DNA of 64,000 nt from Dictyostelium discoideum (taxonomy: Eukaryota), in the NCBI GenBank assembly GCA_000004695.1, contig CM000154.2, forward strand, positions 1,344,001 through 1,408,000. Direction: 5' to 3'. The position numbers and the translations under genes are program-made. Under the pieces are notes generated by a model. The model worked only from the letters and a program-made list of their open reading frames with translations, ran no database searches and was not told the DNA's origin. Shown piece by piece: positions 21,323 through 32,941 of this stretch (positions are counted from its first letter, which is position 1; each line of letters starts with the position of its first letter).

Positions 21323-24300
21323 ATGAATTGCTATTTAAACTTATTTTTTATAATTTTAATTATTTCCTTTGTAAATTGTTAGTTTTTTTTTTAAAAAAAA
21401 AAAAAAAAAATTATAAAAATTTTTAAATTGTAAACATTAATAACTAATTAAAAAAAATAAATAGGTGATGTTTCAATAAAATATTATAACGAACCAATAT
21501 CAGATGATTATATAGCAAATGTAAATGGCAATTGTTCTCAAAAAATCTGTTTCTTGGCCATTTCAAATAAAAATATTTCCGATATAAGTGCTTATGGAAT
21601 TCCTTTTACTTTATTACATGATCCATTTTTTGGACCAATTTCTTATGTTGAACTTTCAGTTTTTTCAAATACATCCTCGCCATCAACTATAATTACAATT
21701 GCAATTACAGAAAATGATGGAGCAATAACTCATTTTTTTAAAACAACCTATTGTTTGCGTATGTAATTTTTTACAAAAATAATATTAATTATATAATAAT
21801 AATAATATAATACTAAAAAAAAAAAAACATATATATATATATATAATTCTTAATAGTTCAAGAGACAACAAATTTCCAATTAGTTTTTAAAAATTCACCA
21901 TTTTTTTTAAATGAACCAATGTCAATAGATTCAGAATTTGGTACTAATAGTGGAGGTCCAAAAATGGTTGTACAGTTCATTGGTAATACACCTTCGGTTT
22001 TTAAAAAATTTTCAAGTAATTCATTATTCAACTCAACAGTTAAACTTTTAGGAAATAAAGCAACAAGTAGACTCTATGAAGTAACAATGTTTCCCATATC
22101 AATGCCAAGTATTAATTTTGAAAATCATAATCTTACTTATAAATATAATAGTGGTAGTGGAGAATTACAAACAACTTCATCATTTACACCAATATATTTT
22201 ACTGAATCTCACTATAATACATTTTTTCCTGCAATAAATTCAAAAAATAATATAATATATCAAGTTGATTTTCAATTCACAACTGATATCTATCCATATG
22301 GTTCAATGGTTTGTACTAATTGTTATATTTTCCTAGTTGCAAATAATGGATCCAGGGTGCAATTTCTTATTTATTTTAATAAAATTGGTTCTTACAATTC
22401 TACTGGTACATTTTCTAATGATGCACTCCATAACAATATGTATTTTACAAAAACTATTACAATTAAACCTGATAATTTTTCAAATGGTACAGAGATGACA
22501 TTGGTCTTCCAAGATACTGCATTTGGTACAACACCAATGGGGTTTTCAGCAATTTTAACTGGTGTTCCAGTATTACCAAATACACCAGTAACAATATATT
22601 ATCCAAGTGGCCTTAAAAGACAATTATGGTTTAATCAACCTCCATTCGGGTTAATAGATGGTTTTATGGTGGGTTTGGTCAATAAATTCAATGTCATGTT
22701 TACTATTAAACTATCAAAGTATATGAGTGGTACATTAAGATATAGTTTTAATTCAAACAATCAAAAATCACCAATAGAAATACCATTGCCAACTCAAATT
22801 GATCCACAGTTAATTGATACAGAATCACCAATAGTAACATCAGCTATTGTAGTAGGCGATATTGGTAAAATGAAATTAGTTATTCAAATGGCAATTACAG
22901 ATGATATTTCAGGTTTTTCAGCTTTTGTATGTTTAGATACAAATGAAATCATTTTCGATTATAAAAATTTAATGCTTGGAGGTACAATTAATAATGGTGT
23001 CTATAGCTTTATCTATGATTATGGTTTCACACCAGTTTGTAAAAATTCAGCATTTTTAGATTTCGCAGGTAATGCACAAGTTCAAAATCAACCATTCACT
23101 GATTTTATTAGATCATTTATAAATGCTACTACCAATATTAAATATTTAATGATGAATACACCAAGTTATCAAGCAAAAACATTATCAGATTTTCAAGAAT
23201 TTTATTTTGCATTTAATAATATCAGTTTAACAAATCAAGGTTTTTATAATACATTATATTTCAAATTCAAAGATAATAATAATGATCCAGATTATTGTAT
23301 TAAATTTAGATTAGCAATTTCAGGTGGATATCCAAATCCAATAGATTATTACTCAATATGGGATAATAATTTACAAATGTATAAAGTTGAATTTTATATT
23401 CCACCAAATCTATCAAAAATTAATATACTTTATTATATTTATTTAGGACTTGATTATGAAACTCAATATTCAACATCACATTTCCAATCATGGGTCAGTT
23501 CAAACAATGCAACATTATCAGTATACTCAAATATTGGTGATATGATGCCACCTTTGGTTCGTTCATTACTAATTAGCCCATCAACTGTGGATTCAGATAG
23601 CTTTTTAAATTATTATTTAATCATTGAAGATGTATACAATGGATTTGGTTATGGAGAAATTACAATTATGGGTTCAGTGGATTTTATACAATGGAATTTT
23701 ACATTTTCATCTGGTGAAAATAAAAATCCATTGGTTGATGTTTATAATTTTTCAATATATATTCCAAAGTGTATATCCCAATCCTACAATATCTATCATT
23801 TGAAATTAGTAGATAAAGCAGGAGTATTCTCAGAGTATACATTTGGTAAATCACAGCCTTTCCCAATCATCGATCCTTTGGTTAAAATAGTTGTTAATGA
23901 ATACAAATTCAATTGCTCAGTTAATCTTTATTCAAACTCTTTACCAGTTTTGAAAGATTTTACATTTGAACCATTATCAATAGATGTAGGTGGCCCAGAT
24001 TCATCAAGAACTGTTATATTTAAAATGGTGGTGGATGGTGCAGCCAAAGCAGGTTCAAAACCCACCATTTATTTAGGTGATACTTATATAAACTATGTAA
24101 CAGTACCAGTTTTATCAGATGGTGTATTTGATCCAATTGCAAATATCACAACATTTACAGTTTCAACAATTATTCCATATGGTTTTGGTTATCCAGAAGG
24201 TATTTTATTAAATGTATTTGGAATTCAAACTACATATTCCACATTTCAAGGTTATTCTTCACTGGATTTACGAGATGCTAATTTCACATATACACTTTTA

Positions 24301-25698
24301 ACTCCAACATTCTCTTCTTATCCAAAAATGACTTCATATTTACCAATTTCAGCCAATGGAGGAGAGTTAACTATTTTTGGAAGAGAATTATCAACAATAG
24401 CAAATTCATTTTATAGAATTATATATTCGGTAAATAGTAGTAATTCTACACCAGTGGCTTCAAATATTAATGTAAAATACATTTCTAATGTTGCAATTAA
24501 ATTAAATGTTTCTTCAACAACTGGTCCATTCACGATTGAATATACAACCTCATCAAAAACCATTGATACAATCACTATATATCCATATCATGATTATTGG
24601 AATCCAAACCCAGTAACACCAACACCAACCGAAACACCAACAGTACCACCTACTATAGCACCAACTGAAACACCAACAGTACCACCAACAAATCCACCAC
24701 AAAAATGTGGTGGTAATCCACAATGTGGTGGTGAGTCAAAAGGTAATTGTGTGAATGGAGTAGGTTGTGTTTGTATTTCACCATGGATTGGAAGTGAATG
24801 TCAATCAAGAATTATTACTATCCCACCACCAGTCATAGATCCAACAAATCCAAATCAAAATTTAACATTAAATTCAACAGGTACAAACGAATTCACATTG
24901 GTCAGTTTAGTATCATTAGTATCATTAAGAGAATTAAATTTTAAAAATGAATTAGTTAGATCATTCCGTTTCGATAAATGGAAATTAATATCAAACACTA
25001 CAACCGATAGTAATTATATAACAGATGTAATAGACCCAAAAAATAATAATACAATTTGTTCAGTTAATGTTTCAACTACTTGGTATCAAACAAAAACAGA
25101 TATCGAATTTGCAGGTCAAAAATTAACAATGAATCCAAGTACATTAAAATATAATATCAATATTACATCATTCCCATTCACATATGGATTGAATACACTT
25201 CAATTAGTAATGTCAGCAACAGCACAATCAACATCACAACAAGATGATCAATGTTCATCCAATGAATTTGGTGATACTACATCAAATGATAATTCAAATT
25301 ATCTTCAACTATCAGTCAATCAACATTCACTCTATGGTAGATTTATTAAAAGAGGTATTGTAGATAACAATATCAAATCAATTGGTAATGAAATTTTAAA
25401 AGATCTCTCAAGTGAAAACTCTTATTACATTTCACAATCATATATTGGTATAAATATTCCATTTTACAAAGAATCTGTTCAATTAGATCCAGATTTCTCA
25501 GTTTTATTAGATCAAAGATCAGCATCATCAATTTGTAATAATAAAGGAAATAAATTATCAAAAGGTGCTATCATTGGTATATCAATTGGGTGTGCTGCCT
25601 TCACTATCATTGTTGTAACTTTAGTTGCAATACTTTTAAAGAATAAATATTTCTTTAAAAGTGTTCAATTAAAAGTGATTAAAATGGTGGCAAAATAA
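21323..25698 (+). CDS. Tgr-like cell-surface glycoprotein A (signal peptide, IPT/TIG-like repeats, EGF-like module, single TM). Exons 21323..21377, 21465..21758, 21857..25698.
   Basis: Signal-peptide exon MNCYLNLFFIILIISFVN with donor GTTAGT. Exon 2 (C)DVSIKYYNEPISDDYIANVNGNC...KTTYCL with donor GTATGT at 21759. Acceptor cttaatag at 21856 leads into the long ORF. IPT-like motifs include FTFEPLSIDVGGPDSSRTVIFKM and SYLPISANGGELTIFGRELS. The EGF-like module is QKCGGNPQCGGESKGNCVNGVGCVCISPWIGSECQ. The TM segment is GAIIGISIGCAAFTIIVVTLVAILL, followed by a short tail. Many N-x-S/T sequons are present. Confidence 0.7.
24690..25665 (+). repeat. Near-identical 3' block of Tgr-like gene A. It is about 98% identical over about 0.9 kb to 29914..30889.
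   Basis: Direct comparison shows only scattered single-base differences from ccaccacaaaaatgtggtggtaatcc... through the TM region. The antisense ORFs 25373..25561 and 30597..30785 in the track are identical. Confidence 0.85.
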
Positions 25699-26519
25699 TA
25701 AATAAAACATTTCCACTTGTGTATTTATAAGTTATAAATAGATTTTTACAATATTTTAATTTTTTTTTTTTTTTAGAAAATAAAATTTTATTTGATATAG
25801 TCATTTATTTATTTATTTTTTTTTGTTTTTTTTAAAAGAATAATCTAAAACGATCTGGAAACAATTCTCTTTAAAGAATTTAGAGCGAAATTTGGAAACA
25901 ACAATAGTGTGGTGGGCAATCAATTTTTTATTAGTAATTTCTTTTTTTTTTTTTTTTTTTTAGTAAATGGGGGTTGTTTACCACTTTGAAACTATTTTTA
26001 ACTGATTTAAAATAATTTATTTAATATTTAATTTTCAATGTGTCCATAGTTAAAAATGCTCTTTAATTTATTTGTTTTACTTGTAATGGATGTGGATTAC
26101 AATAATTTTATAGACTATCATTTAATTTTAAAAAATCCTATAGTTCTTTTATTGTATCAGTTTCAAATAAAAAAAATAGATATTTATTTTAATTTTACCA
26201 GTATTAATATTTCAAAATCCCAAAAAAAACCGAAAGGCGTTTCTTTACATTTTTTAGTTGAATTTCAAAGAAAAAATTTTAATATGTTTTTTCAAATCAA
26301 ATTTATTATAATTATTGAAAAAAAAAAAAAAATTATTTAAAAATTATTTAAATCTATATTCCATGTACTTTTATTTTAAATAGGTTTATAAATAACCAAT
26401 AATAACAACAGTTATTAATATTAAATAAAAAATAAAAAATGAATTTTCATAAAAAAAAACGAAAAAAAATCTTTCCCGGCTCCTCTTTTTTTACACTATT
26501 AAATTCGCAACATATAAAT

Positions 26520-26554
<35 letters not shown>

Positions 26555-26560
26555 AAAAAA

Positions 26561-26664
26561 ATGATTAACATTAATATAAACAAAATATTTATTTTGATTT
26601 TCTTTATTATAACTTATATAAACATAATTAAGGGTAATTATAATAATAAAAATTCTGAAAATAG

Positions 26665-26698
<34 letters not shown>

Positions 26699-27095
26699 TT
26701 TTAATTAAAAATATTGCAAACAGGTGATATATCAATAAAGTATTATGATGAACCATTACCGGAAAATTTTGTTGCTGATTCAATTGGTAATTGTAAAGTA
26801 AAGTATTCTTTGTTTATAAAAAGCGATGTGCCAATAAAATCCATAGAAACTTCTCCAAGTGCCACAAATCCATTTGGTGAATTAAATAAATTAAATACCA
26901 CATTCTCGTTTCAAATAATATCAAATTTAGATTCGCCAAACTTTACACTCACAGTAATAATTATTGATAATAATTTAAAAGAATTTAGAGATTCAAGAAT
27001 AGTATATTGCGTTAGTAAGTTATAGTTTTAATATTATATTTTTCAATTTTTATTTTTACAATTATTCAATTTATCATTTCAATAAAATAATAAAA

Positions 27096-27133
<38 letters not shown>

Positions 27134-30100
27134 TTAGAATTAAATAATTATGGCCCAACAACAGAATATTTATTACAGACAAAGAAAAATAAAAGTAAAC
27201 TTTTTTTAAATGGTGTAATTAGTAAAAGTTCAAATACAGGAAAAGTAAGTGGGCCATTAATTGTTGTTGAATATATTAGTAATACACCACCACTTTTAGA
27301 ATCATTATACCCCAATCCATTTGATTTATTAATAAAACCATTAGGAAATAAAAAAACAAGTATATTGTATGAAATTTTATTTTTTACTTCAGCACCAAAC
27401 TATTTTTTCGACCAACTTGAAATATTTTATGCATGGGGTAGTTTTAAAATAGAACAAGCTCCCTCAACAAATCCCCAAATTATATTTTCCCAAATTTCTA
27501 TTTTTCCAACAGTTCAACCGAGTGCTAGTGCAATTGGGCTTTTTAGTTTAAAATTTAATGATTCTTCACAAGAAAGAACAATTAGAATTATCTCTGTAAA
27601 TTCTTATGTATATCCAGCTTTCAATGATGGTTTAAATGTAACATATCTTTGTTATTTTAATGAAAAAGGTAAATCAGATATTAATTTATCATACGGTATC
27701 CAATCTAAACCAATCTTTTCGGGTACTGTAAATATCCAAGCTGAAGATTACTCACAAGGCAAAGAAATGTTATTATTATTCAATGATCAATTAATGAATA
27801 TCACTCCAACAGCATTTACAGTAGTTTTAAGTGGAGTACCACTATTACCACAATATCCAATAAAATTAACATATCCAAGTGGTTTCGAGAGACAATTATG
27901 GCTCAACCAAAATCCATTTTCATTAAAGAATGGTTTTAGAAAAGATTCAATTGATACTTATGAAATAGTTTTCACTGCAAAGTTATCAAAATATTCAAGA
28001 GGTTCACATATTTTAAAATATAATTCAACAAATTACCTTACTTTCGAAGCTACACCTAAACCAGAATTAATTGTTGATAGTAGTCCACCAGACATAATAA
28101 TGGTTCGATCTTTTAATATTGGTAGAATGAAAATAGACATTCAAATTTCAATTATTGATGATATTTCAGGTTTTTCAGCTTTTGTATGTTTAGATACCAA
28201 TGAAATCATTTTCGATTATAAAAATTTAAAAATAGGTGGCACAATAAATAATGGTGTTTATAGTTTTATTTATGATTATGGTTTCACACCAGTTTGTAAA
28301 AAATCAGCATTTTTAGATTTCGCAGGCAATGCATTAGTACAAAATCAATCATTTGTGGATTTAATAGTTTCAAATGGAATGTTTAACTATTTTTCAATTG
28401 ACCTTCCAATTACAAAACCAAAAACATTATCAGATTTTGATCAATTTTATTTTGCATTCAATAATATCAATTTAACAAACCAAGGTTTTTACAATACATT
28501 ATTTTTTAAATTTAAAGATAATGATAATGATCCAGACTATTGTATTAAATTTAGATTGGCAATTTCAGAAGGTTGGCCAAATCCAGTGGATAGTTTTTCA
28601 ACATGGGATTACAATTTGCAAATGTATAGAGTTGACTTTTTTTTACCGTCAAACTTATTAAATATGGATATACTTTATTATATTTATTTAGGACTTGATT
28701 ATGAAACTCAATATTCAACATCACACTTCCAATCATGGGTCAGTTCAAACAATGCAACATTATCAGTATACTCAAATAATGGAGATATAATGCCACCTAT
28801 GGTTCATTATTTAGATTGGCTCATAACTGATATGCTAAACTATTCAATACAAAGGAATTTAATATGGATGTTTAATATTGAAGACCAATATAATGGTTTT
28901 GATATGGGTGAGCTTACAATTATGGGTTCAGTAGATTTTATACCATGGAACTTTAAATTTTCATCAAATAATAAGAATCCACTATCAGATTATTATAACT
29001 TTACAATTTCTATTCCTCAAAATTCAAGAACTCAAACCTATTATATCACTCATTTGAAATTAGTTGATAAAAATGGAATATTTTCTGAATATAATATTAG
29101 TAAACCACAAGTTTTCCCAAACGTTGATCCATTAATTAAAATGCCCTCTCGATCATTTAAAGTTCTTGGTGATGATGATAATCCTATTTCAAGTACACTT
29201 CCAACATTGGTTGATTTCATTATAACACCAAGTTTAATCGATGTCGGAGGTTCAGATATTTCAAGAAATGTTATATTCACTATTAAAACCCAAGATGTGG
29301 TTGGAATTAGACAAGATGTAAAACCAACCATTTATTTAGGTGATACCTATTTAAATTATATACCAGTACCAGTTACATCAGATGGTGTTTTAGATCCAAT
29401 TACAGGTGTCACGACATTTACGGTTTCAACAACTATTCCATATGGTTTTGGTTACCCAGAAGGTATTTTATTAAATGTATTTGGAATTAAAAGCTCACAT
29501 TCTACATTTCAAGGTTATTCATCATTTGATTTACGTGATGCTTTTTTTAGCTATTCAATCACTACTTCAACTTTCTCAGTAGGTACGAAATTATTATCCT
29601 ATTCACCAATTTCAAACAAAGGTGGTCAATTTACAATTTTTGGAAGATCATTAGATGCCATAGAGAATCCTTCTTACTATATTACTTTAAACTCTCAAAC
29701 AAATGTATCAAAAATAATTCCAGACATTCAATTTATTTCAATTAGTAGTTCAGCAGTTATAATTACAGCAGTTCCTTCTAATTCTTCATTTTCAGTATTT
29801 TTAGTAGATTCCTCAAGTAATAATATAATTGATTCAATTATTATTAATCCATATTATGATTATTGGGTATCCAATCCGATAAAACCAACTGAAACACCAA
29901 TAGTATTACCTACAAATCCACCACAAAAATGTGGTGGTAATCCACAATGTGGTGGTGAATCAAAAGGTAAATGTGTGAATGGAGTAGGTTGTGTTTGTAT
30001 TTCACCATGGATTGGAAGTGAATGTCAATCAAGAATTATTACTATCCCACCACCAATCATAGACCCAAAAAATCCAAATCAAAATTTAACATTAAATTCA

Positions 30101-30931
30101 ACAGGTACAAATGAATTCACATTGGTCAGTTTAGTATCATTAGTTTCATTAAGAGAATTAAATTTTAAAAATGAATTAGTTAGATCATTCCGTTTCGATA
30201 AATGGAAATTAATATCAAACACTACAACCGATAGTAATTATATAACAGATGTAATAGACCCAAAAAATAATAATACAATATGTTCAGTTAATGTTTCAAC
30301 TACTTGGTATCAAACAAAAACAGATATCGAATTTGCAGGTCAAAAATTAACAATGAATCCTAGTACATTAAAATATAATATCAACATTACATCATTCCCA
30401 TTCACATATGGATTGAATACACTTCAATTAGTAATGTCAGCAACAGCACAATCAACATCACAACAAGATGATCAATGTTCATCCAATGAATTTGGTGATA
30501 CTACATCAAATGATAATTCAAATTATCTTCAACTATCAGTCAATCAACATTCACTCTATGGTAGATTTATTAAAAGAGGTATTGTAGATAACAATATCAA
30601 ATCAATTGGTAATGAAATTTTAAAAGATCTCTCAAGTGAAAACTCTTATTACATTTCACAATCATATATTGGTATAAATATTCCATTTTACAAAGAATCT
30701 GTTCAATTAGATCCAGATTTCTCAGTTTTATTAGATCAAAGATCAGCATCATCAATTTGTAATAATAAAGGAAATAAATTATCAAAAGGTGCTATCATTG
30801 GTATATCAATTGGGTGTGCTGCATTTACTGTTGTTGCTGTAACTCTACTTGTAATTTTATTAAAGAATAAATATTTCTTTAAAAGTATTCAATTAAAAGC
30901 TATAGAATTAGTAGAAACAAAAAATAAATAA
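26561..30931 (+). CDS. Tgr-like cell-surface glycoprotein B, tandem paralogue of A. Exons 26561..26633, 26724..27014, 27138..30931.
   Basis: Same three-exon architecture and phases as gene A (MINININKIFILIFFIITYINIIKG | GDISIKYYDEPLPENF...RIVYCV | KLNNYGPTTEYLL...). The N-terminal two-thirds is diverged. Mosaic blocks and the C-terminal about 330 aa are near-identical to A. Confidence 0.7.
29914..30889 (+). repeat. Near-identical 3' block of Tgr-like gene B, partner of 24690..25665
   Basis: See partner feature. Confidence 0.85.
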
Positions 30932-31028: not shown

Positions 31029-31807
31029 TTATTCTTTTATTTCATTTTTTTCTTTTTTGTGTAATTTTGAGAAAAATGAATGTTTTTTCTCTTTTTTCTC
31101 CTTTTTATTATCACCAAGCTCTTCATTTTCATTTGATATATTATTTTCTTTTGCAAGATTTGGTTGGTTATTTGATTTATAATCGTTTTGTTGATAGTTG
31201 TCATATGCTTGTTTATTTAATTGTACTGGCGGTTGATTATAATTATAGTCCATGTATCCTGGTTGTTGTTGTTGTGGCTGTTGTTGATATTGATTTGGGT
31301 ATTGATCTTGTCTTTGTAAATATTCAGGTGGTACTTGAGCCATTGGGGCGTCATATTTTCCTTTTTTATGATTTTTTTCATTATTTTCAGCTTCAAATTT
31401 AACATCGTCAGGATTATTAAAAGTAGGCATAGTTTCTTTTTCATAATATGGAATTGTTGCACCACAAGACGGACAATGTAAAAACATATTACCATTTTTT
31501 ACTTTAAAGAATGGAATAAAAAATAAGTGAAACCACTCATCATTTTTTACTAATTGAACTCCACTATTTTTACAATTAACACACTTTTTTTTTTTTTTTT
31601 TTTTAAAGTTTTAGTTATTTTAAATTATAATATTATTATTACGAAAAAAGTAAATTATAGTTACAATTCTTTTCTTGTTATCAATTAATTTCGACTTTCC
31701 TCTAAGTCCAAATGGAATAATTATTGGAATCCACTGTAATAAAACTAATGATTAATAAATTAAATTTTAATAAACAAATAAAAATAATAAAATTTTAAGT
31801 TTACCAT
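31029..31807 (-). CDS. LITAF-like zinc-ribbon membrane-hairpin protein with a Q/N-rich tail. Proposed exons 31805..31807 (ATG only), 31665..31733, 31029..31583.
   Basis: ORF 31029..31487 extends upstream to an acceptor at 31584 and gives CVNCKNSGVQLVKNDEWFHLFFIPFFKVKNGNMFLHCPSCGATIPYYE. This is a CxxC ... hydrophobic ... HCPxC arrangement as in the LITAF/SIMPLE-like domain. An upstream exon WIPIIIPFGLRGKSKLIDNKKRI has donor GTAACT and is preceded by acceptor ttattacag. The only upstream ATG is aaaaaaaaaATG|GTAAAC at 31805-31807, which would make exon 1 the start codon alone. Confidence 0.45.
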
Positions 31808-31867
31808 TTTTTTTTTCTCTGTTTTAGTAAATTAAAAAAATAAATTTCATTTTAATAAAAAGGAAAT

Positions 31868-31901
<34 letters not shown>

Positions 31902-32109
31902 AAAGAAAAAAGAAATTAATTTAAAATTTCCTTTTTTAAACAATTTTTTTTTTTTTTTTATTTTTTTTTATTTTAATTTTAATTTTATTTTTTTATTTTT
32001 TTATTTTTTTATTTGCATGTAAAAAATTAAATTAATTAATTAACACTTTTTTTAATTTTTATTATTTTTTTTATTATTTTTTTTTTTTTTACAATTTCAT
32101 AAAAAAAAT

Positions 32110-32800
32110 AATTTTACATGATTTTGGGATCTGTTTGTTACCAGAGCGCTTGATAAAGAGTATGCCCATACACATCCTCATGGGATATAATCTTCAAAAA
32201 TCGTATTAAACCAGAAAATGTGGTTAATATAAATGAAAAGGGTATCATTTGCCAAATCAAATTCCAAGGTAATTTATATAATATTCAAATAAATTAATTA
32301 TAAATCTATTTTTATTAATACATTTTTCATAGTTGATATTACTCATCAAATTATTATTTTGTAGATGCATCAACTTTGAAAAGCAAATACGAATGTACTA
32401 TGTTGACACTTTTTCCAAAAGATCTAAAAAGACTAACCACTACCCAACCTAAGGATAAAATTAAATTTTTAAAAAACAAAATGGAAAGAATAGAGTTGTG
32501 TTTAAAATACAATATATGCATTGGTAATATAAGTCTTGGTATGGATGGAGTCAACCCGAGAAATCATCTTGAATATAGATAACCACACTTTAAAGAAGGT
32601 GTCAGTGGATGAAATCAAAAATACCAAAGATTTTCTAAAACGAGTTCATGCACCGCGCATATCCATTTAACTAAATTTTCCGAAACAATATATTCTAAAA
32701 ATTCTCAAAACCAGACAATCATATCTCAGAATGTCGGTGTTCCTTCTATTGATGAAATTCTTAACCGTTTCATCAGAAGAAGTAGTTAATTAATTTATTC
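32110..32800 (+). other. GC-richer compositional island containing a coding-like ORF (32337..32582, plus an upstream frame-matched segment 32185..32268) with C-ending codons. Gene model unresolved.
   Basis: ...RVCPYTSSWDIIFKNRIKPENVVNINEKGIICQIKFQ then GTAATT donor at 32269. Acceptor attttgtag at 32364 precedes DASTLKSKYECTMLTLFPKDLKRLTTTQPKDKIKFLKNKMERIELCLKYNICIGNISLGMDGVNPRNHLEYR*. No in-frame ATG or consistent 5' exon found. Downstream 32590..32790 has further short frames. Confidence 0.3.
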
Positions 32801-32941
32801 TAAAAAAGCTAAAAATAAAATAATATTTTCCATATTAAATTTTCTTTTTTTTTTTTTTTTGTCATTATTTTTTTTCAGAAAATAATTATTTATTTTTAGA
32901 AAAAAAAAAATTATTTATTTTTGGAAAAAAAAAAAACATTA

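Follow-up and report, generated by a model that had tools for sequence, protein, structure and literature searches.

Decaying unitary or fragment pseudogenes are characterised by in-frame stops, a lost start, divergence at the intergenic rate and independent deletions in sister lineages, and they go unannotated. The short, GC-richer block of Dictyostelium discoideum DNA described here shares all of these properties; unlike such pseudogenes, however, it has neither a findable parent or orthologue nor codon-position periodicity. Fragments of the Dictyostelium transposons TRE, DIRS-1, Skipper, DDT and thug resemble it as well, being lineage-specific, GC-richer blocks in AT-rich spacer with no gene model. 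In contrast to them, the block lacks terminal repeats and an element-type protein domain, lies near no tRNA gene and has no second copy in the DNA examined. The conceptual peptide of the block, with its spaced cysteines, recalls the saposin-like (SAPLIP or amoebapore-like) proteins over 20 residues at the C-terminal end of one of their domains, but it lacks the first cysteine, and two of its spacings exceed the expected ones by 5 and 10 residues. The remaining class to consider is that of the intergenic long non-coding RNAs (lncRNAs), of which 621 are reported from rRNA-depleted, stranded developmental RNA-seq of strain AX4 (Rosengarten 2016, PMC5295588). These are, according to that catalogue, similar in length (median 628 nt, as compared to 691 nt) and likewise have a GC content above that of untranscribed spacer (13%). 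However, their median GC content is 17%, against 28% for the block, and the catalogue lists no model at the block, while two are listed on the far side of one of its neighbours.

The block corresponds to AX4 chr5:1,376,110-1,376,800, that is, to positions 32110-32800 of the window, by which we mean the whole 64-kb stretch of DNA analysed. The conversion (chromosomal position = window position + 1,344,000) follows from the published coordinates of two genes. One is DDB_G0288307, an ankyrin/BTB gene on the minus strand at 32942-37956 (chr5:1376942-1381956 in a published table), and the other is alg5 (DDB_G0288321), at 41100-42562 (chr5 1385100-1386562), whose spliced model of four exons is an exact match to the recorded product. 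The block lies between DDB_G0288307, the stop codon of which is 141 nt away, and DDB_G0288303. The latter was identified by exact-product look-up, since a hand-spliced model with an ATG micro-exon at 31807-31805 followed by two exons gives exactly the 208-aa protein XP_636803.1. This neighbour had been described as LITAF-like; in the precomputed tables its Pfam domain is Zn_ribbon_15. The same kind of look-up found no exact product on record for ankyrin/BTB open reading frames (ORFs) of 950 and 654 aa or for a ComC-like ORF of 1259 aa, because these genes have several exons. With the exact neighbour proteins as handles, the orthologous spacers were fetched from five assemblies.

The GC-richer block is a real feature with sharp boundaries. 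In windows of 100 nt the GC content rises from 5-7% to 32% at 32101 and falls from 31% to 10% at 32801, and the average over 32110-32800 is 28.4%, compared to 12.6% for 31500-32109 and 9.2% for 32801-32941, so that a block at 32101-32800 stands out from flanks of 9-13%. The value of 35-40% given in the original prediction is too high, the maximum being 31.5% per 200-nt window and 32% per 100-nt window. About 28% is in fact the ordinary level of coding sequence, which has 28-30% in the vicinity. The richness in CpG that had been pointed out is not clearly unusual either: 10 dinucleotides are observed and 13.9 expected (observed/expected 0.72), and the ratio reaches 1.14 only in the last 218 nt, where it is based on 6 CpGs.

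The layout of the block is gene-like, with a T-run, an ATG, a first block, an AT-rich GT..AG spacer, a second block and an AATAAA in succession. A single plus-strand frame spans all of it, from the ATG at 32118, just 3' of the T-run, to the TAA at 32787. It is the only long reading frame, and it carries four internal stops, namely the tandem TGA TAA at 32151-32156, the TAA at 32580 and the TGA at 32610. The initiator ATG that had been reported as missing thus exists in frame, at 32118-32120 and in an A-rich context after the long T-run; the start stretch (32118-32156) reads MILGSVCYQSA, i.e. the ATG and 10 sense codons, before it runs into the TGA TAA after 11 codons. All downstream segments are in the same frame. 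The two frame-compatible segments and their peptide are as originally described. The first of them (32157-32268, "exon 1") has a GC content of about 33% and an open frame RVCPY...CQIKFQ, and it includes an inverted repeat, CCCAT at 32165-32169 and ATGGG at 32180-32184. The putative intron, GTAATT...TTTTGTAG, is indeed present between the GT at 32269 and the AG at 32364, with a length of 96 nt, a multiple of three, and a GC content of 11.6%; it has GT..AG ends on the plus strand only.

The second segment (32365-32582, "exon 2") holds a 72-codon open frame, DASTLK...HLEYR, and within it a 60-aa ORF that starts with ATG (32400-32582). The stop at 32580-32582 had been read as TAG and is a TAA. In the tail (32583-32789, 31.7% GC) the same frame continues through the TGA at 32610-32612 to the TAA at 32787-32789. 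Here a second frame is about equally open, and the number of stops in the tail taken alone is at chance level (P=0.22). Over the whole long frame, 5 stops are found in 193 codons where about 14 are expected, but this depletion is weak, with P=0.005 for the given frame and 0.06 for the best of six. Close to its end the block contains a hairpin that is stable in folding calculations (32743-32779, plus strand; arms CTTCTATTGATGAAA and TTTCATCAGAAG, loop TTCTTAACCG), and the AATAAA follows just 3' of the block at 32814-32819, on the plus strand. The latter carries little weight, since hexamers of this kind turn up often where the DNA is so rich in AT. Taken as a whole, the block does not contain the ATG-initiated frame free of internal stops that a functional protein-coding gene has. 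We have also considered that the stops might be passed by selenocysteine insertion or readthrough, and rejected this, two of the four internal stops being TAA.

It is important to consider whether the codons themselves look coding, since the original prediction had emphasised a codon usage of the highly expressed type. The codon log-odds were calculated with tables from 15 long ORFs of the same window and compared to those of real 70-codon chunks. For the three segments of the proposed frame the values are 0.09, 0.02 and -0.20 bits per codon, while real coding sequences average 0.52, with their 5th percentile at 0.18. The proposed frame is the best of the six by this measure, the minus-strand frames scoring lower, and still it lies under the 5th percentile of real coding sequence. 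The GC content by codon position is flat in exon 2 (GC1/2/3 of 0.31/0.32/0.25), whereas in the real genes of this region GC1 and GC2 are mostly about 0.3-0.45 and GC3 is about 0.13. The periodicity chi-square of exon 2 is 4.4 (p=0.62), lower than that of all 137 real coding chunks of equal length, and for the spliced block as a whole it is 13.4, as compared to a median of 58.6 for real coding sequence.

The C-ending codons are indeed frequent in the proposed frame, with NNC/(NNC+NNT) of 0.53, 0.26 and 0.43 in the three segments and 0.06-0.35 in real genes. However, the wrong frames of the block contain them at a similar frequency (0.18-0.46), because the GC content is flat across the codon positions. 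What looked like the usage of a highly expressed gene is thus, given also the low log-odds, an effect of composition. Codon-position periodicity and genome-typical codon usage, both of which a coding gene displays, are absent here, and by the three tests of codon log-odds, GC by codon position and periodicity the block is not coding.

We now consider the close relatives. An independent assembly of AX4-type D. discoideum (GCA_054883475.1) has the block with 100% identity over 691 nt, which shows that the in-frame stops are real and not sequencing errors; the annotation of this assembly places no gene in the interval from the 1639-aa ankyrin/BTB gene to DDB_G0288303. Two further assemblies, GCA_054859385.1, labelled D. 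discoideum (L005 below), and GCA_054859205.1, D. cf. discoideum (L004), have much shorter spacers, of 677 and 714 bp, respectively, compared to 1135 bp in AX4.

In L005, the counterpart of 32110-32305 and the 3' end of the block are retained, and the DNA from 32306 to about 32757 is missing. At the start the ATG is replaced by GTT and there are 4 extra bases, while the first segment has 91% identity, a deletion of 21 nt (about 32188-32208) and a CAA>TAA change. The deletion stops at the left arm of the hairpin at 32743-32779, whose loop appears to be flipped (by eye, 9 of 10 positions match in the flipped orientation and 4 of 10 in the direct one). In L004, the first 25 nt are retained and a segment corresponding to 32180-32243 is inverted, with 55 of 64 positions identical; it adjoins the inverted repeat CCCAT/ATGGG. 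Positions 32346-32661 and 32701-32790 are missing, and between them a 38-nt piece (32663-32700) is kept with 38 of 38 positions identical and with the DNA on both sides of it gone. The AT-rich GT..AG spacer is divided in the same way, its 5' part being kept in L005 and its 3' part in L004. Exon 2 is wholly absent from L005 and gives no BLAST HSP in L004, where a global alignment, when forced, pairs 49% of it with an identity of 49%, as unrelated AT-rich DNA would also give.

Relative to AX4, the neighbouring coding sequences of L005 and L004 are 97-98% identical and the flanking intergenic DNA 87-88%. The retained DNA of the block, with 91% identity and with indels, has diverged at the intergenic rate rather than at the coding rate. 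The conservation under purifying selection that a coding gene shows in close relatives is thus not seen, and what is seen, disabling mutations together with neutral evolution, is characteristic of a pseudogene. The deletions have different boundaries, and each of the two relatives has preserved pieces that are gone from the other. It follows that the losses were independent and that a full-length block like that of AX4 was ancestral to the three.

Outside this complex the block was not found. D. citrinum has an intergenic spacer of about 300 bp and D. firmibasis one of 389 bp, and in these two species the block is absent, the vestige seen in local alignments not being above shuffled controls. 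The order of these relatives is given by alg5, in which L005 and L004 share 99.1-99.4% identity with AX4, D. citrinum 97.9% and D. firmibasis 93.9%. The suggestion that the locus is lineage-specific therefore holds for the assemblies compared, in which the block is confined to the D. discoideum complex. The conservation in other Dictyostelium genomes that had been proposed as a check turned out to be erosion in L004 and L005 and absence from D. citrinum and D. firmibasis. Judged from these sequences, the simplest history would be that the block was gained on the stem of the D. discoideum complex. It may also be older and have disappeared completely from the outgroups, because the spacer loses DNA fast.

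The searches for homologues gave nothing credible, in agreement with the earlier statement that the peptide belongs to no known family. There is no match in Pfam for the block in all six frames and none among the PDB sequences for its peptide. An exhaustive HMMER search of 1.84 billion representative proteins, made with exon 2, gave three matches, all of them to internally repetitive proteins with scores summed over 4-7 repeats. These were rejected as artefacts, because the scores add up across the repeats. As the AX4 proteins are part of this collection, an annotated AX4 protein containing exon 2 would have matched. A word-indexed protein search with the 178-aa conceptual peptide also found no match, which is a weak null, since two ankyrin/BTB queries came back empty too, their low-complexity words having swamped the index. 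Five candidate products, namely four ORFs, including those of 68 and 60 aa, and one spliced model with a GTG start, were looked up by exact sequence, and none is on record. No match to the block was found in metagenome, viral, prokaryote, plasmid and phage collections, and a horizontal transfer from bacteria, phage or plasmid gained no support from these collections. Neither the 64-kb window nor the fetched loci (L001-L008), about 130 kb in total, contain a second copy. A recognisable functional parent or orthologue, as a pseudogene would have, did not emerge from these searches.

The resemblance to saposins mentioned above was treated as due to chance. It concerns a stretch of 20 residues, IKFLKNKMERIELCLKYNIC, that is similar to the C terminus of one saposin B domain of a multi-saposin protein (P0003). 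A local HMM built from the repeats of P0003 aligns these 20 residues only, with 13.9 bits, and the library E-value of the hit (2e-4) is inflated by the seven repeats of that protein. Pfam SapB_1 and SapB_2 have no match to the peptide at E<=10, while the control, P0003, gives 1e-47 to 1e-57. The cysteines of the conceptual peptide are arranged as C-x28-C-x15-C-x34-C-x5-C, as compared to C-x2-C-x27-C-x10-C-x24-C-x5-C in saposins, and the position of the first saposin cysteine is a stop codon in the frame of the block.

At the RNA level, Rfam 15 has zero matches at the gathering score in the whole window, and the local matches at E<=10 are noise only. There are no tRNA or tmRNA genes in the 64 kb, and Rfam gives no rRNA signal. 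A mitochondrial-DNA insert or a piece of rDNA may also be considered as the source of the block, but no rRNA or tRNA signal accompanies it. The folding z-scores relative to shuffled controls are -0.39, -2.09 and -0.07, so that folding beyond shuffled controls combined with conservation, the signature of a structured non-coding RNA, is not found for the block. The 11-nt motif that we take to be typical of Class I RNAs is absent. A box C/D snoRNA was considered as well, UGAUGA and CUGA being visible by eye on the minus strand, and was rejected, since a terminal stem is missing and the motifs are wrongly spaced.

We turn to annotation and expression. In the four annotated assemblies examined, the spacer contains no called gene. 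Supplementary file 19 of the developmental lncRNA study contains no model at the block, although its catalogue omits transcripts that tile into a neighbouring gene (PMC5295588). In the neighbour table of the same study DDB_G0288307 appears twice, both times with models on its other side (38227-38819 of the window on the plus strand and 40331-40632 on the minus strand), and DDB_G0288303 never appears; among the chr5 features listed there with starts at 13759xx-13769xx, DDB_G0288307 is the only one (PMC5295588). As far as this catalogue goes, the absence of a model argues against an abundant independent transcript. Read-through from a neighbour may still occur, since the filter of the catalogue would remove it (PMC5295588).

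Taken together, these results lead us to regard the block as probably a non-functional, unconstrained relic specific to the D. discoideum complex. Most likely, it is not a conserved RNA, and it is not a highly expressed gene either. Among the three options originally put forward, a pseudogene comes closest, considering that the stops are confirmed in a second assembly, that the divergence is at the intergenic rate and that the losses are independent; however, no parent gene was found, and coding periodicity is lacking. The small, highly expressed gene with a micro-exon start is not supported, in view of the missing periodicity, the poor codon scores, the deletion of the main exon in the relatives, and the lack of both a gene call in the four assemblies and a catalogue model. 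The third option, a structured non-coding RNA locus, is not supported either, in view of the Rfam search, the folding z-scores and the lack of sequence conservation.

The course of events would then be as follows. On the stem of the D. discoideum complex, the DNA would either have been inserted or have been left behind when a short-lived orphan gene died. In the close relatives it is being removed piecemeal, through deletions and through inversions at short inverted repeats. Today, presumably, no functional protein or RNA is made from it, and the 72-codon ORF would be either a leftover or a product of chance. The term "pseudogene of an ordinary gene" fits the observations uncomfortably. A recently dead Dictyostelium gene should keep its periodicity, and since the block has none, this points to a non-coding or foreign donor.

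It is worth noting separately that the gene-like layout and the sharp edges sit less easily with a relic, and that a GC content of 28% needs a source, for which no donor or parent was found.

It is conceivable, but rather unlikely in our estimate, that the block is instead a live and very young transcript of the AX4 lineage, either a small orphan protein, such as the 60-aa ATG ORF, or a spliced lncRNA, running divergently from the promoter region of DDB_G0288303. The anatomy described above would suit this (the T-run, the ATG in A-rich context, the 96-nt GT..AG spacer and the AATAAA at 32814), as would the 72-codon open frame and the orientation, which fits a site between divergent and convergent neighbours; the length of 691 nt is also near the median of 628 nt reported for the D. 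discoideum lncRNAs (PMC5295588). What weighs against it is the absence of coding periodicity, the poor codon scores and the fact that the relevant exon is deleted in relatives whose neighbouring coding sequences are still 97-98% identical. Furthermore, the locus is unannotated in the four annotated assemblies examined, the candidate products that were looked up are not on record, and the AX4 developmental RNA-seq catalogue has no lncRNA model there (PMC5295588). A more specific version, in which stem-acquired DNA would be transcribed and spliced in the AX4-type lineage only, from a promoter region shared with DDB_G0288303, to give a micro-protein of 60-72 aa or an lncRNA, appears quite improbable. 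If true, such a newborn micro-protein or lncRNA would represent an observable gene birth, with the sister lineages having already lost it.

A fragment of a mobile element or repeat, i.e. a non-coding module, an LTR or a non-autonomous element that entered the ancestor of the complex in a single insertion and is eroding today, is an unlikely explanation as well. The pattern of presence and absence, with empty sites in the two outgroups, would be accounted for, about 28% GC without codon periodicity suits a non-coding element module, and no protein homologue is found. However, terminal inverted repeats, LTR-type ends and a convincing target-site duplication are all lacking, the sole flanking repeat being of low complexity with 71% identity. 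Nor does the 64-kb window contain a tRNA gene, as TRE elements would predict, or a second copy, which is also absent from the roughly 130 kb of fetched loci, and Pfam detects no transposase, reverse transcriptase or integrase domain. This explanation concerns the origin of the block and is compatible with its being a relic today.

We consider it very unlikely that the block is part of a neighbouring transcript. In that case it would either extend DDB_G0288307 on the minus strand, as a long 3' UTR or an additional 3' exon, or serve DDB_G0288303 as a non-coding 5' exon lying upstream. It is true that the block begins only 141 nt beyond the stop codon of DDB_G0288307 and that transcripts tiling into a neighbour would be omitted from the lncRNA catalogue (PMC5295588). 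The neighbours are intact, however, and have the same called structure in the relatives that miss most or all of the block. In addition, a UTR with 28% GC would be atypical for the D. discoideum genome, the minus-strand frames score worse than the plus-strand frame, and the spacer has its GT..AG on the plus strand only.

Finally, a gene for a structured non-coding RNA, whether its class is known or new, is hardly credible: the GC content above that of intergenic DNA, the stable hairpin at 32743-32779 and an element GCCCATAC at 32164-32171, which by eye resembles what we take to be the Dictyostelium upstream element, are outweighed by the lack of an Rfam match at the gathering threshold (with E<=10 noise only) and of a tRNA, by the folding z-scores of -0.39, -2.09 and -0.07, by the absence on inspection of a box C/D arrangement with terminal stem on either strand, and by a sequence that is not conserved even within the species complex.

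Read as a decaying relic, the block is unannotated, lineage-restricted DNA with no hidden gene in it, and it has little biological weight. It is useful as a cautionary case, since in a genome this AT-rich any block of 28% GC with a chance ORF and a GT..AG spacer looks gene-like, and codon-position periodicity together with very close relatives can resolve such cases quickly. It also provides a small natural record of the speed at which unconstrained DNA is removed from Dictyostelium spacers: while the coding sequences diverged by about 2%, two independent deletions of several hundred bases occurred, together with two inversions at short inverted repeats.

We begin with the two small inverted repeats of the GC-richer island, at window positions 32165-32184 and 32743-32779, both of which match rearrangement breakpoints in related genomes. 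One of them adjoins a segment that is inverted in L004 (GCA_054859205.1, D. cf. discoideum), and the other forms a hairpin whose loop is flipped in L005 (GCA_054859385.1, labelled D. discoideum). Since breakpoints are found at both repeats, the island rearrangements in the relatives suggest inversion at short inverted repeats.

The left neighbour of the island, DDB_G0288303 (window 31029-31807, minus strand), has a first exon that consists of a single ATG codon. It was called LITAF-like in the original prediction, but its Pfam match in precomputed tables is Zn_ribbon_15 (PF17032), not LITAF. In D. citrinum, an unrelated GC-richer block (L007:1-540) occupies the expected site of the large 3' exon of the orthologue, and the annotation calls no orthologue there. 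This block may have arisen by insertion or by rearrangement.

Two ComC-like genes (DUF7743/DUF7035/ComC_SSD) beside this neighbour lie at window 21919-30931, L004:11801-21289, L005:10869-20058 and L006:10877-20779, the last in the AX4-type assembly GCA_054883475.1. Their gene calls differ strongly among these close relatives, being 1385 aa and 1401 aa in L006 and a single gene of 2758 aa in L005. In L004 they are split into pieces of 440 and 479 aa, and a third product of 435 aa is fused to the Zn-ribbon gene. Either the locus or its annotation is unstable.

The patchy-GC 3-kb spacer between DDB_G0288307 and alg5 contains two 100-N assembly gaps (window 39101-39200 and 40702-40801). The AX4 reference gap is bridged in the newer assembly, GCA_054883475.1, by ca 230 bp of extra sequence, with a locally duplicated match (window 39100-39430 vs L006:2199-3212); outside the gap region, identity between this assembly and the reference is 99.4-100% over 25-41.7 kb. 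Two AX4 intergenic lncRNA models published in Rosengarten 2016 (PMC5295588), CUFF_4142_1 (window 38227-38819, plus strand) and CUFF_4143_1 (40331-40632, minus strand), also map inside this spacer.

Finally, two first-exon donors are on record for alg5 (window 41100-41183). In the AX4 model the first exon is spliced at 41178 and the protein has 327 aa; in newer annotations the donor is a GTAATT further upstream and the protein has 318 aa. Each product has a database record.
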